From Nematostella vectensis (taxonomy: Eukaryota): 64,000 bases of DNA. The DNA lies in NCBI RefSeq assembly GCF_932526225.1, contig NC_064039.1, forward strand, positions 6,193,459 to 6,257,458, written 5' to 3'. The translations under genes and the position numbers were made by a program. Of the stretch, positions 32,340-38,165 are shown in pieces. The notes under the pieces were generated by a model. The model saw nothing but the letters and a program-made list of their open reading frames with translations, was not told where the DNA came from and did no database searches. How positions within the stretch are numbered: the first letter of the stretch is position 1; each line of letters begins with the position of its first letter.

Positions 32340-32715
32340 ATTTCTAGAGTAGAGTTATCCAGCTTTACGAGTCGTAAAGCAGAGTTATCCAGTGGTACGA
32401 GTCGTGAGTTAGAGTTATTCATTGGTACGAGTCGTGAAGTAGAGTTATCCAGTGGTACGAGTGGTGAAGAGAAGTTATCCAGTGGTACGAGTCGTGAAGC
32501 AGAGTTATCCAGTGGTACGAGTCGTGAAGAAGAGTTATCCAGTGGTACGAGTGGTGAAGCAGAGTTATCCAGTGGTACGAGTCATGAAGTAGAGTTATTC
32601 AGTGGTACGGGTGGTGAAGCAGAGTTATCCAGTGGTACGAGTAGTGAAGTAGAGTTATTCAGAGGTACGAGTGGCAAAACAGAGTTATCCAGTTGCACAA
32701 GTCGTAAAGCAGAGT
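32340..32715. repeat. 30-bp minisatellite (cagagttatccagtggtacgagtcgtgaag), ~12 copies; the same family recurs at 38000-38165
   Basis: The tandem periodicity is visible. The long ORF 32295-32771 (SSGTSREAEL repeats) is a translation artifact of this array. Confidence 0.9.
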
Positions 32716-35700
32716 ATTATTTTTATTTTTTATTATTTTTTTTATTAAAACAAACACTCCCTTGTACCTAATACATTTTCCTTACATATTTTTTTTAAAA
32801 ATTTACATTCTTATATTTTTGCTTGTTTTTTACTATTTACAATATTTACAAGAGTTGTTGTTCTTTACACTTCTTATAAACGGTCTGTTTTAATACATTC
32901 ATTATAATTTTTCGTACAAATATATACACAACATAAACAGAAACACAACACAAACAAGACCCGAGCCATTACCCTTCCCATTCCATACCATCCTCAATCA
33001 TTTTATTAACAACTTGACTTTTTTAAAGCCTCTAACATTTTCCCATTTTTGGTAGTGTGCTGACATCTTGCGTTTTCTTTTTGCAACTAGGAATTCATTT
33101 TTTTCGTATTGTTTTAGAAAGTTTTGGAAGACCATTAAGGAGGGGATTTTAAAGTCATTTTTATGTTAAAAAGGCACAATTTATAAAGGAAGATTATGAA
33201 ATTTTCTGGGCCTTCATCCTTGATACCGAGTAAAATATTTTCAAGATTAGATTCTGGCAGTGAAATATTATACTGTTCAAGCCATTGCCTTGCTTCGAAG
33301 TATAAGTTCTTGGATTCTATACATTCTACAAAGAAATGGTCTATTGTTACAGGGAATGATAAGCAAAAAGAACATCTAGAGTCAGGAATAATGTCAAACT
33401 TATGTAACTGCTTATTTAAAAACAAAACATCTTTTAGAATTTTGTATTGAAAGTGTCTAATATAACTATCTATTGTGCTTGAATAAATTCTAGTATAAAC
33501 AGTTTCCCATTTTATTTCACTACTACTATTTATTCTCTTTTCTAAATTCTTTTGAGCTGTCGGTGGCTTCAGTATTCTCTCAATAAGATAATCATATATC
33601 ATATATATGATTATCATATATTTTTATAGAGTCCGCTTTAATGCACGAGTCCTTTAAGTTTACATACTTCTCCCTTATTACACTGCTAATGCTTGCCATA
33701 TTAGCCGTTTCTGGTTGATCCATCAGTTTTTCTCGCCATATGGCAGGGATAGCTTTTATTAACCTTAGCCCTAAAAAACGGTGTTCACCGATCCCCTTTT
33801 CTTTGGCTATTTGCCAGTCTAGTTCCCCTTTATCATTGCATAGATAACATATACAAAGAACATCTTTCGAGATGAAATCGTTTAAATGTATGAGTTTATT
33901 ATAAACTTATTGCACCATAAACTCTGCTCAAGAACTGACCTTGTAGATAATGTATCAACCTTACTATGGCAAAACACATCAGCCCATTCTTTTAAAGCAT
34001 TTTTATATATATTTGGTAATGAGTTGGGGAGGGATTCAGTATCGAAATTTTCCCGTCCGAGAATTGGAATTCCTCCTATCTCATTCAAAATACAACTTGG
34101 TATTATTTTCCATGATCGTTCTTCTATATTTAATAGCTGAGAAATTAGTTTAATCCGACTTGCCTTGACAATCGACGCGAAATCAGGCAGTTAAACCACC
34201 CTTTTAGTAAGGCATACTTTATTTTTGGCTTCCTTCCCCTCCAGATAAAGTCCTTGACCGCGCTTTCTACTTCACGTATATAGCCACTTGGAAGACATAA
34301 TTTAGAACATATACAGTAACTTAGACAAAGCCAAAGAACGGACAACTTGAATTCGCCCAAATAATGTCAGATCACGTGTTCGCCATATGGATAATATAGT
34401 TTTAAAATTATCTAAAACGCGAATAAAATTTTTCTGGTTTGACAAAGTTTCATTATAAGAAAAGAAAACCCCTAAAACCATAACACCCTCCTTATAAAAA
34501 TCCACCCATTTCAGCCCCAAATTACCTAACACTTGCTACTGAAGTGGTTCTTCTCCTAGCCAGCCAACCTCTGATTTAGACAGATTAATTTTTAAAGATG
34601 TAAATTAACTAAACTGTTTTAAAATAATTAATGTATTTTTTAATGAAGCAGTATCTCCCAAAAAAAAAAAAAAACGTAGTGTCGTCAGCGTATAACGCTA
34701 GTTTCTTTTCTTGATTTCCTATTTGTAAACCTTTGATCTCTTTGCATTCTCTGATCATTGTAGCCATCACTTCTAAAACCAATATAAAGAGATATGGCGA
34801 AATGGGATCTCCCTGCTTAGTACTTCTACCTAACGGAAAAAAATCGGTACAGTGACCATTATTAACGACCGCACTCATGTTTTCGTTTAGAATAACCCTT
34901 ATCCAATTTACGAATGAGCTGCCAAATCCATAGTGTTTCAAGACAGCAAAAATGAAATTGTGTTCAATAGAATCAAAGGCTTTTTCGAAGTCAGCTGCAA
35001 ACAAAATCAACGATTTATTGGATTTATTAATATATTCCATTGTATCTGCTACCATGCGAACTGAGTCCTCGATCGTTCTTTCTTCTACAAAAGCCGCTTG
35101 GTCCGAGTGAATTATTCGTGGTAAACATTTTTTCATTCGAGAACATAAAGCTTTGCTACAAATTTTTGCATCAACGTTAATAAGACTGATAGGGCGCCAA
35201 GCGTCTATTATTCTTTTGTCTTTTTTGGGTTTCTCAAGTAGGGTGATAAGAACTTTTCTTTGCGTTATTGTAAGACGGCCTTTGTCATAACTATCGTTAA
35301 GGCATTTTACTAAATCTTGTCCGATATCTCCCCAGAACGCTAAATGAAATTCTTTAGTTAGACCATCCATCCCTGGTGTTTTACTATTCCCCATTGAATT
35401 AACACTTTGAAAACATTCATTTAGAGTGAGCTTTCCTTCACATTTTGTTTTTTCTTCTTCGGTTATTCTTGGAGTGCTAAGGTTGGATAAAAATTCTAAG
35501 CACTCTTCTGTTTTACTACTTTTTGATTGAAATAATGAGCTAAAATGATGTTTAATTTTTGCCAAGATACTTTTTAAATCCGTAATCTCCTCATTATCTA
35601 TTAATAGCTTCTTAATGTGCGTCTTATTTTTATTTCGCTTTTCCAGTGATAGGAAGTATGCGTTGCTTTTTTCACCAAATTCATACCACTGTGATTTTGA

Positions 35701-38000
35701 CCTTATTATAATTCCCTGTGTTACATGATTACTGTAATTCTCCAAATCAAGCTTCAACTTATTATATTCCGAGTAGAGTGATTTATCACTTTCCCAATCT
35801 TCGATTTGTTCAATACTTTTAATTTTTTCCTCTAGATCTTTGTATTCGCAACGCCTTTGTCTTGCTAATACTTTTGAGTATCCTATTGTAAACTTTCGAA
35901 TCTCATATTTAATCAACTCCGATCTTAATTGGGGGTTATCTATACCTTCAATAGTCAAAGAACTCTTTATTTCGTTTATTTTAGTTGTTAGCATATCAAT
36001 GTATTCTTGGTTTTCTGTAAGGGAGTTATTAAATTTCCAAAATGACGGACCCCTTGCATTTTCTTTAGATGATTTGAATTTCAAGGTTATGGCCGAGTGA
36101 TCAGCTGATGGTGCAGGGATTATGTCATATAATTCCACTGAGGTTTGCATTCCATCAGAAATGAAGAAATAATCTAATCGTCTATGAATGTACTGACCTG
36201 GTCTACTAGCTTTACCTTGTCCACATCCTCGCCATGTATATCTTTTCTTTGTTGGATTTCTTAGTCGCCAGATGTCACAAAGATCTAACTCTACCAATAT
36301 CGTTTCAAGCGTTTTTATAGTGTGAGTTTTAAGGACAGGGTTCCCACCGAACGTTTCCAACGTCAAATTCATAACAACATTAAAATCTTCGCCCCAAATT
36401 ACTGGCGCATTCACCGACGCATTTATTGTTTGTATCTTTTCATACAAATTCTTAATTGCCTCTACTTGGTCTTTTTCTTCGTTGGGTGCATAAAAATTTA
36501 TCAATATAAATTCTTGATCTTGAATTTCACAATGCGAAACAAGGAATCGACCTCCGCTATCAACAATTGTTTCCAATATTTTATATTGTAGATTTTTGCC
36601 AAACAATATTGCTCCACCTTTACTTTCTGTACTACCATGAGACATGAAAATTTCCCCTCTAAATTGCCTCTTCCAATTTTCCTTCAAATCCGGAGAGCTG
36701 TGTATTTCTTGCAAAAAACTGACACTTTTCTGCATTTCTTATAATCTCTTAGACCTCTAACGTTAAGTGAGAGCACACTAAATTCAAATTTATTAGCCAT
36801 TTCAAATTAAATATACAAAAATGCTTAATATTCGGATGGGGTATGGGGTGGGTATGTGCTGTGAATCAAAACTCATGAAATGATACAAAACAAGATAATA
36901 TACACAGTTAACAACGAATAACACAAGACACATATAACTTACACAGAACATTTTTAAAAGACGGTTTTCACGGGACCAACCGCCATATGAGATGGCCCGG
37001 TACATATGAAACGTCATAAAGTCAAAACTCCAATGCTTCACTAGAATTTTCTAAACATCTACTGGTTGGGCTTTATTTTGCTCTTGTGTATTAGAATCTA
37101 AAGACCGAGTTAGCTGAAGCTTCTTGGCTTAATTTCCAGTGTCGCGGTATATCATAGTGATTATACATCTTACCGTCTACTATAAGCTTATCGCCGATTA
37201 TTGTCGCTTTCGTCCCTTCCTTTTGTTTAACTTTAATGCTGGGACCAGAACATTCTTCCTAATTTCTTGGATTTGCCTTGGAACATCTTCGCCAATACTT
37301 ATCGTCTGACCCTTCAGGTTGTATCTCGCCTTCCATACCTTTTCACGGTCTGCTCTGCAGGTGAAACGTATTATCATTGGCCTTATCTTACCTTCGTTTC
37401 CCTAGCCTGTGAACACCACACAGCTTCATCTCTTCAACTTCTTTCGATCCCAATTTCAACCGTCTTACTAGCTCGCCTTTTACTAATTTTTCGCTGTTTT
37501 CTTCTGGGGCATCCGTCAATTTGTACACTACCAAATTCCACCTTCGACTATATAAGCTTTGTCTCACAAACTCGTCCGTATTATTCGCTTGTTGCCGTTC
37601 ACATTCTTCCGTCCGTTCCCGGAGCTCATCGCTGTCGTTTACGTTTTGTATGAGGTCGTTATCTATTCTTTGAAGCTCTCCTTCTACAACTTTAATTTTA
37701 TTGAAGGCCACATCTAACTGTCCCTCCAACTCCAGAATTTTTCCATCTCTCTCCTTTAGCGAGTCTTCCAAAGTAGTTAACCTTTTGATGAGGTCCTTGT
37801 ATTCCGTTACCGTTACCGTCTTCTTCTACCGATTTACCCGAGCTACTGACCCGCTTTCTCTTCTCCTTACTCTCAGCTGACTTTCCCATGTCCTTACTTA
37901 CCAATATTGAACACAGTATATCCGGTTTTTTCAAGATAAAACCAGAAATTTCAACGTTTTTAGCGGAGCTCGAAAAGACATGTCTTTCTCTATCGAGACA
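32716..38000 (-). mobile_element. L1/Tx1-like non-LTR retrotransposon (LINE), roughly full length (~5.3 kb) with frameshifts; ORF1 37198-37771, ORF2 33135-36735
   Basis: ORF1 shows a coiled coil (LKERDGKILELEGQLDVAFNKIKVVEGELQRIDNDL), the RRM-like region SRRWNLVVYKL...EE, and CGVHRLGKRR. After a 1-nt frame change it reads the C-terminal domain IRPMIIRFTCRADREKVWKARYNLKGQTISIGEDVPRQIQEIRKNVLVPALKLNKRKG. ORF2 begins MQKSVSFLQEIH (APE endonuclease) and runs through the reverse transcriptase to ...LALYADDTTFF. It then frameshifts at a T-run. The RT thumb and C-terminal region are in other frames (34145-34532), and the C-terminal Cys/His tail is at 33135-33617 (FCLSFPVTIDHFFVEC). An A-rich tail and the 30-bp satellite lie at the 3' end. 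Confidence 0.8.
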
Positions 38001-38165
38001 TCCCCCGGGATGTAAAGCAGAGTTATCCAGCAGAGTTATCCAGTGGTACAAGTCGTAAAGCAGAGTTATCCGGTGGCACAATTGGTGGGACGGGGTTATC
38101 CACCGGTACGAGTGGTTAGACGGAGTTTTCCACCGGTTCGAGTGGTGACTCTCCACCGGTACGAG
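38000..38165. repeat. Second block of the same 30-bp minisatellite, same orientation, with degenerate copies
   Basis: The block reads cagagttatccagtggtacaagtcgtaaag cagagttatccggtggcacaattggtgggacggggttatccaccggtacgagtgg.. Confidence 0.8.

Follow-up and report, generated by a model that had tools for sequence, protein, structure and literature searches.

Probable chance insertion of a full-length L1-clade LINE into a 30-bp minisatellite of Nematostella vectensis

Within the 64-kb window of the Nematostella vectensis genome analysed here (the whole stretch of DNA, to which all positions refer), a 5.3-kb LINE on the minus strand is flanked by two blocks of the same 30-bp minisatellite in identical orientation, which raises the question of how the element and the repeat came to lie together. 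An earlier note on this DNA had described one repeat family in one orientation on both flanks, and TRF bears this out, with blocks at 32351-32715 and ~38016-38165. We consider it likely that the LINE belongs to a Nematostella vectensis family of L1-clade non-LTR retrotransposons, is full length, and inserted by ordinary TPRT into a pre-existing non-coding minisatellite, where it landed by chance.

Build and decay of the element

The LINE extends from the end of its tail at 32716 to 38011, possibly to 38005, and consists of two ORFs and an A-rich tail of 31 nt, with at least nine frame disruptions (Table 1). A 5' UTR of ~124 nt is present, therefore the copy is full length; the corresponding region of the relative L008 measures 172 nt. 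The first 6 nt of this UTR (38006-38011) could still be satellite, and the 5' end of the LINE may include TGGATAACTCTGCTTTAC.

Table 1. Features of the LINE and of the flanking minisatellite
Feature	Position	Strand	Description	Basis
3'-side minisatellite block	32351..32715	-	12.2 units, 85% matches	TRF, pattern search
3' copy of 12-bp TSD	32704..32715	-	ACTCTGCTTTAC (GTAAAGCAGAGT on + strand)	exact-match positions
A-rich 3' tail	32716..32746	-	AATAAAAAAAATAATAAAAAATAAAAATAAT, 31 nt	junction sequence
LINE 3' UTR	32747..33137	-	between ORF2 stop and tail	
ORF2	33138..36797	-	~1,220 codons; at least 6 frame changes, at least 1 stop	
zf-RVT Cys/His motif in ORF2	~33500-33309	-		Pfam match
RT (Pfam RVT_1) in ORF2	~35229-34669	-	YADD just ahead of T15 run	
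APE endonuclease in ORF2	~36797-36070	-		match to L1 endonuclease structures
ORF1-ORF2 spacer	36798..37093	-		frame map
ORF1	37094..37887	-	~265-275 codons; at least 3 frame changes; predicted coiled coil, RRM, CTD	
LINE 5' UTR	37888..38011	-	~124 nt	
5' copy of 12-bp TSD	38012..38023	-	ACTCTGCTTTAC	exact-match positions
5'-side minisatellite block	38016..38165	-	~4.5 diverged units (3.8 scored, 75%)	same unit, TRF
13-bp tandem duplication	38017..38042	-	TGGATAACTCTGC x2 (element strand)	TRF period 13

Searches of ORF2 against Pfam returned RVT_1 at 1e-29 and, over the gathering score, zf-RVT at 3.2e-07 with the motif CSFC-x8-H-x4-C. With the PDB sequences of human L1 and R2 as references for the RT comparison, human L1 ORF2p aligned with residues 4-689 of ORF2 at 6e-72, whereas the match to R2 was far weaker (5e-14). 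The N-terminal domain (residues 6-252) matched L1 endonuclease structures in phmmer searches at 8e-15 to 3e-13; Pfam Exo_endo_phos was not matched by the single ORF2 sequence. The motifs LQEIH, YADD and CSFCLSFPVTIDHFFVEC were all found in ORF2, and the region of the endonuclease betaB6-betaB5 hairpin exceeds that of human L1 by 8 residues.

As a single sequence, ORF1 matched nothing in Pfam or PDB. It shares ~92% identity, outside a 24-residue gap, with the N. vectensis RefSeq protein XP_048585318.1 of LOC125568050, and a profile of its 28-sequence family matches human L1 ORF1p (2ykp at 1.1e-08, 2ldy at 6e-05). We assessed the fold on the homologue P0064, 47% identical to ORF1, and not on the frameshifted copy itself; for the AlphaFold model of this homologue (pLDDT 76), Foldseek ranks 1-8 were all human L1 ORF1p trimer or RRM-CTD structures. 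ORF1 is thus predicted to be a type II L1 ORF1p composed of a coiled coil, an RRM and a CTD; no CCHC knuckle was found in it. Pfam, the structure matches and the modelled ORF1 fold all agree with the earlier call of a LINE with these ORF1 domains and an ORF2 bearing an APE endonuclease, an RT with YADD and a Cys/His motif. Further ORF1-like matches (58-61% identity) lie on three coral-metagenome contigs, L009-L011, with no RT ORF called downstream, and do not bear on targeting.

The copy is decayed and inactive. A T15 run on the element strand (34660-34674) directly follows YADD, ORF1 changes frame at ~37391-37401, and the disruptions in ORF1 come to three or more frame changes, those in ORF2 to six or more together with a stop. 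These disruptions and the expansion of the T run after YADD render the copy inactive, as the earlier note had stated. That note had listed just two disruptions: the frame-disrupting T run is there, but not as the T16 at 34650-34665 that was described, and the ORF1 frame change is likewise real but lies beyond the position near 37385 assigned to it.

Junctions and the flanking repeats

The unit of the minisatellite has the consensus GGATAACTCTGCTTCACGACTCGTACCACT on the element strand, and the pattern search for it gave matches in 0 of 100 shuffled controls. Nothing resembling the unit occurs inside the LINE, and within the 64-kb window it was not found outside the two blocks. Viral contigs held no arrays of the satellite and it was absent from all 11 fetched loci; metagenome and prokaryote genome contigs held three single 20-mer matches and no arrays, approximately the number expected by chance, and the one match inspected (L003) lay in ordinary non-repetitive sequence. 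An RNA-gene-derived target (snRNA, 5S, tRNA) was considered and dropped, since the array had no Rfam match at E<=1. The ORFs flanking the locus (31161-31688 and 38268-38558) gave no informative matches in Pfam or PDB.

At the junctions, the A-rich tail directly adjoins the 3'-side block, ACTCTGCTTTAC is identical at 12 of 12 positions on both sides, and these 12 bp, a normal TSD size for L1, are the stretch over which the blocks overlap in register. The units adjacent to the junctions both carry the rare TTTACGACTTGT variant and are 94% identical over 36 bp, compared with ~77% for other pairs of units between the two blocks. The overlap in register and the shared rare variant indicate that a non-coding array was already in place and was split by the LINE, and the 5'-side block is the edge of this original array. 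The earlier proposal of an insertion into a pre-existing array is therefore sustained by the tail lying against the array, the 12-bp in-phase overlap and the shared variant, and the same insertion footprint rules out the alternative offered with it, namely that the 3' ends of LINEs give rise to the satellite.

The tandem repetition of the target makes the TSD length ambiguous, and a duplication of 36 bp with 2 mismatches plus ~21 extra nt fits equally well. Beside the 5' junction the 30-bp register is disrupted by a 13-bp duplication; this duplicated unit fragment does not follow from simple TPRT and could represent target-derived sequence carried on the element RNA. In the course of insertion that we propose, the endonuclease would nick the bottom strand in the sole A/T-rich patch of the unit (GGATAAC, bottom strand GTTAT), the RNA would prime synthesis at this nick with its A/U-rich 3' tail, and a second nick ~12 bp away would give rise to the ACTCTGCTTTAC duplication.

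Two other origins of the flanking repeats were weighed. The 30-bp repeats might belong to the LINE, as 5'-UTR monomers and/or a 3' terminal repeat, or the 3' block might be the 5' end of a second copy. Some LINEs, for example mouse L1, have tandem monomers in their 5' UTR, and the 5' block here resembles such arrays in directly adjoining the 5' UTR from upstream. Unlike the mouse monomers, however, the array resumes in register past the 3' tail of the LINE, which makes it host DNA and no component of the LINE. The 3' block is separated from the LINE body by the A-rich tail, the register overlap of the blocks is that of one split array, the sequence beyond the 3' block shows no similarity to the LINE 5' UTR or ORF1 (blastn, tblastn), and no matching direct repeat is found beyond the two blocks. 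We rejected this origin, which is highly improbable, on the position of the 3' block, the register overlap and the lack of LINE sequence beyond it.

The array might also be a coding exon of a secreted host protein, with a signal peptide and decapeptide repeats (ELSSGTSREA)n, that the LINE disrupted. An ORF on the + strand (32295-32771) does begin with the signal-peptide-like MKSCTMFIFLVAWLSIS and is open across all 12 units, but other frames of the unit are likewise open. Differences between units are synonymous in 6 cases and non-synonymous in 27 (18% versus 23% in random expectation) and are spread 14/12/7 over the codon positions, so that purifying selection is not apparent. The repeat peptide, searched in four frames against 5.8 billion proteins, had 0 matches, and Pfam had none. 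With the synonymous/non-synonymous pattern, the protein search and Pfam all against it, the coding exon was rejected, and we give it scarcely any credence.

Target specificity and affinity to the Tx1 clade

Once a pre-existing non-coding array is taken as the target, it can be asked whether the LINE selected it. Tx1-clade elements that target satellites, microsatellites and transposons are documented, and target specificity has been defined there by more than 20% of flanks at the same target position (PMC4494074). The ORF1s of the Tx1 group are RRM/zf-CCHC variants (PMC5203782), whereas the ORF1 found here has, on the modelled fold, the type II architecture. The earlier reading of the element as Tx1-like finds no support in this ORF1 or in the relatives L002 and L008, which have poly(A) tails and A-rich TSDs and sit in unique DNA. 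LQEIH and the C-terminal motif, which had been taken as signs of the Tx1 clade, occur generally among APE-type LINEs and in L1-like ORF2s and do not mark a clade.

The best ORF2 relative in the protein search had 54% identity, and the same search contained no ORF2 copy of the same family; viral and metagenome contigs held no related loci of the LINE. L002, 52% identical, ends in an A38 tail and has the A-rich TSD AAAAACAGGAGGCT, and L008 has an A33 tail and an A-rich TSD of ~12-14 bp; as these relatives belong to different families, at 36-52% amino-acid identity, their specificity could differ from that of the LINE. The 8-residue loop insertion in the endonuclease is common to the LINE and L002. 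A long hairpin loop was entertained as a clue to specificity and set aside, since L002 has the same loop and sits in unique DNA.

A LINE of the L1/Tx1 group that is specific to, or prefers, satellites would have an endonuclease that recognises the 30-bp unit, and the additional part-unit beside the 5' junction would be read-through from a source copy that itself lay in satellite. Such a reading is in keeping with the array on both flanks together with a TSD, the 13-bp duplicated fragment exactly at the 5' junction, the endonuclease hairpin that exceeds the human one, and the satellite, microsatellite and transposon targets of the Tx1 clade (PMC4494074). Against it stand the type II, L1-like ORF1 in place of the RRM/zf-CCHC form linked to Tx1 (PMC5203782), the long-loop relative L002 at an A-rich site in unique DNA with its pure A tail, and the position of the presumed nick in the unit's sole A/T-rich patch, the choice expected of a generic L1 endonuclease. 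Tandem arrays make up 10.1-10.6% of the non-LINE window, and at this base rate of ~10% a single array landing carries no statistical weight and chance landings are often to be expected. Targeting is judged here from one observation, the one copy of the LINE family that was examined, and we regard satellite specificity as unlikely. Target specificity and a Tx1 affinity of the LINE are thus not supported, and in a region this rich in repeats chance, not sequence-specific targeting, is the best account of how it came to lie in the array. It is tempting to speculate that a Nematostella L1-group family with a type II ORF1p prefers the 30-bp minisatellite, its 5' fragment having been transcribed along with a source copy that lay in a different array, but we hold this to be decidedly improbable.

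Relation to known elements

The LINE resembles the L1-clade elements of human and mouse, which are 'relaxed' L1s of poly(A) type, in having two ORFs, a predicted ORF1p that combines a coiled coil with an RRM and a CTD, and an ORF2p with an N-terminal APE endonuclease, an RT and a C-terminal Cys/His motif. It further resembles them in its A-rich tail and 12-bp TSD, and its relatives have pure poly(A) and A-rich targets. Unlike human and mouse L1, the family is cnidarian and the spacer between the ORFs is long (~300 nt); the tail differs from that of pure poly(A) L1s in being interrupted by T (TAA-like), and the endonuclease differs from that of human L1 by its 8 additional residues in the betaB6-betaB5 hairpin region. 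The Tx1-clade LINEs (Tx1L, Keno, Kibi, Koshi, Tx1-Mar; PMC4494074) fall, with the present LINE, into one broad L1/Tx1 group of APE-type elements, and the LINE is like them in lying within a repeat that continues on both flanks, satellites being among the Tx1 targets. It is unlike the Tx1 group in its type II ORF1, which contrasts with the RRM/zf-CCHC variant (PMC5203782), and unlike Tx1-clade LINEs in that its closest relatives lie in unique DNA and that nothing in the one copy examined points to repeated insertion at a given site.

Altogether, the locus comprises a dead L1-clade copy of full length within a non-coding minisatellite; it is an ordinary finding and provides a clean example of the TPRT footprint within a tandem array. 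If a preference for the satellite were true, it would point to a cnidarian L1 lineage that targets satellites and falls outside the classical Tx1 clade; even so, it would widen a phenomenon already familiar from the related Tx1 clade, in which target-specific insertion into satellites is documented.

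Coding capacity and decay of the LINE

At full length, ORF2 of the minus-strand element (hereafter LINE) comprises about 1,220 codons, as judged by six-frame translation and tblastn with relatives, and its first 708 codons form a single open frame. It matched Pfam RVT_1 (1e-29) and zf-RVT (3e-07), and residues 4-689 aligned with human L1 ORF2p (6e-72), with R2 proteins scoring far more weakly (~5e-14); L1 endonuclease structures matched its N-terminal 250 residues. The stitched ORF1 gave no hit as a single sequence, and a profile from 28 ORF1 homologues matched human L1 ORF1p (2ykp, 1.1e-08). 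The AlphaFold model of one ORF1 homologue (47% identical, pLDDT 76) combines a long helix with an RRM and a small C-terminal domain, and the best eight Foldseek matches to this model were all human L1 ORF1p. ORF1 is of type II (L1 proper). The Pfam, human L1, profile and Foldseek matches confirmed the anatomy described in the earlier note, with coiled coil, RRM and C-terminal domain in ORF1 and endonuclease, reverse transcriptase and Cys/His motif in ORF2. The frameshifts it had reported are also present, at slightly offset coordinates, and the disabling mutations had been undercounted: ORF1 carries at least three frame changes, and ORF2 at least six plus at least one stop; in ORF2 these lie downstream of YADD with one exception. 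A T15 run (34660-34674) immediately after the YADD codons is the first frame change past this motif.

Leaving out a 24-residue gap, ORF1 shares ~92% identity with the Nematostella vectensis protein XP_048585318.1 (LOC125568050, uncharacterized). This match makes N. vectensis the very probable source of the window and gives the family at least one further copy in that genome. Corals, amphioxus and marine metagenomes supplied the remaining relatives of ORF1 and ORF2, at 36-54% identity. ORF1-like ORFs with 58-61% identity to part of ORF1, and with no RT ORF called downstream, were observed on three TARA metagenome contigs (L009 3683-4189, L010 3525-4031 and L011 3709-4203) and may represent ORF1 genes that stand alone or have decayed.

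A single minisatellite array on both sides

The LINE separates two blocks of a 30-bp repeat. By TRF, the 3' block holds 12.2 units with 85% matches, and the 5' block is shorter and more diverged. The unit was found nowhere else in the window, nor in shuffles, and the array had no Rfam match. An ORF of 158 aa with a signal-peptide-like start (MKSCTMFIFLVAWLSIS) is open through all units of the 3' block as (ELSSGTSREA)n. A coding role was rejected: differences between units in its frame are 6 synonymous versus 27 non-synonymous, no better than random, and the repeat peptide, in any frame, matched none of 5.8 billion proteins. The array is a non-coding minisatellite.

Read along the element strand, the A-rich tail of 31 nt (32746-32716) adjoins ...ACTCTGCTTTACGACTTGTGCAACTGGATAAC... 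without a gap; on the 5' side the block ends in ...TGGATAACTCTGCTTTAC, followed by AT and the start of the 5' UTR, CCCGGGGGATG.... The 12-mer ACTCTGCTTTAC stands at both junctions (38012-38023 and 32704-32715). In unit coordinates, position 18 is the last of the 5' block and position 7 the first of the 3' block, a 12-bp overlap as expected of an L1-size target-site duplication (TSD). The junction-adjacent units of both blocks contain the rare TTTACGACTTGT variant and are 94% identical over 36 bp, whereas other unit pairs between the blocks are ~77% identical. The 30-bp unit has no counterpart within the LINE, and no LINE-like sequence lies beyond the 3' block. The 12-mer at both ends, the register overlap, the common rare variant and the lack of LINE/unit resemblance together show one array split by one target-primed reverse transcription insertion, in agreement with the earlier proposal of insertion into a pre-existing array. 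The alternatives that the satellite is generated at LINE 3' ends, or is part of the LINE, are ruled out by the junction, register and similarity evidence.

Some ambiguity remains at the 5' junction. A 13-bp tandem duplication (38017-38042; TGGATAACTCTGC twice on the element strand, GCAGAGTTATCCA twice on the plus strand) overlaps the 5' TSD copy and disrupts the 30-bp register; slippage, a junction repair scar and target sequence carried on the LINE RNA are candidate origins. The junction can also be parsed as a 36-bp TSD with two mismatches and ~21 extra nucleotides.

Surrounding features

Coordinates and characteristics of the LINE, its flanking array and other features of the window
Feature	Position	Strand	Remarks
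LINE	32716-38011	-	L1-type
ORF1	37887-37094	-	
ORF2, full length	36797-33138	-	
ORF2, first open frame	36735-34612	-	
3' block	32351-32715		30-bp unit
5' block	~38016-38165		30-bp unit
158-aa ORF	32295-32771	+	
GC-rich stretch	38170-38461	+	YY1-like CGCCATCTT motif, ~38205-38215
Near-perfect palindrome	38809-38910		arms ~48 nt; DNA fold -60.6 kcal/mol, z = -16
Integrase core ORF and adjacent ORF	13293-13919; 15328-16017	+; -	Pfam rva_4, 1e-32 (integrase core)
806-aa ORF	53603-56023	+	Thr/Pro-rich region; C-terminal hydrophobic segment
Minisatellite	2279-2818		271 bp (x2)
Minisatellite	7406-8223		60 bp
Minisatellite	43538-44948		43 bp (x31)
Minisatellite	46071-48154		nested 48/83/487 bp

The GC-rich stretch, directly beside the 5' block, is probably a promoter with a first exon; downstream of its YY1-like motif, an ORF from 38263/38268 ends at a GTAAGT donor (~38461) and had no match in Pfam or PDB. 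The palindrome, separated from the 5' end of the LINE by ~650 bp, gave sub-threshold miRNA-model matches on both strands and may be a MITE-like hairpin or cruciform site. The integrase core ORF indicates another transposable element; its neighbour gave a weak HECT-like match (2.7e-04, below cut-off). The 806-aa ORF, without a Pfam hit, resembles an exon of a mucin-like membrane protein; coding tandem repeats of 30 and 36 bp (54459-54801) make up its Thr/Pro-rich region.

Target choice and course of the insertion

The earlier note had read the LINE as Tx1-like and possibly target-specific. Two points stand in favour of this reading: satellites are documented targets of some Tx1-clade families (Kojima 2015, PMC4494074), and simple target-primed reverse transcription does not account for the piece of the unit that is duplicated at the 5' junction. 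The indirect evidence on targeting points away from specificity, and we consider the reading unlikely. Since tandem arrays make up 10.1-10.6% of the window outside the LINE, roughly one in ten random insertions would fall in such an array. The presumed nick site lies in GGATAAC, the sole A/T-rich patch of the unit and the place that a generic L1-type endonuclease would be expected to choose. RRM/zf-CCHC variants of ORF1 have been linked to Tx1 (Ivancevic et al. 2016, PMC5203782), whereas ORF1 here is of type II.

Canonical features mark the closest relatives whose ends could be read: the L002 locus (52% identity) combines an A38 tail with TSD AAAAACAGGAGGCT in unique DNA, L008 an A33 tail and a ~12-14 bp TSD, likewise in unique DNA, and L007 an A13 tail. 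The satellite occurred in none of the 11 fetched loci. Searches of the protein collection for a same-family ORF2, of viral and metagenome contigs for the LINE family, and of viral contigs for the satellite, returned nothing, and a satellite 20-mer search of metagenome and prokaryote genome contigs gave single matches only. For the endonuclease domain, the match to 2v0r, an L1-Tx1 loop chimera, was 3 bits better than that to the wild-type L1 endonuclease. Its betaB6-betaB5 hairpin region (36090-36160, minus strand; YTWRGCGQGKASRPGQYIHRRLD) has an 8-residue insertion relative to human L1, GCGQGKAS, missing from most relatives and shared only by P0002/L002; as L002 has it too, it was rejected as a marker of satellite targeting.

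The element's identity, its tail, the 12-mer at both ends, the overlap in register and the decay can be seen directly. The insertion itself would have begun with a nick in the bottom strand, within the GTTAT of one unit, at which the A/U-rich RNA tail would prime. Reverse transcription would then have run full length, with a second nick ~12 bp away, and neutral decay, including expansion of the T run past YADD, would have followed. The LINE is an ordinary inactive L1-clade element that landed in an older minisatellite within a minisatellite-rich region.
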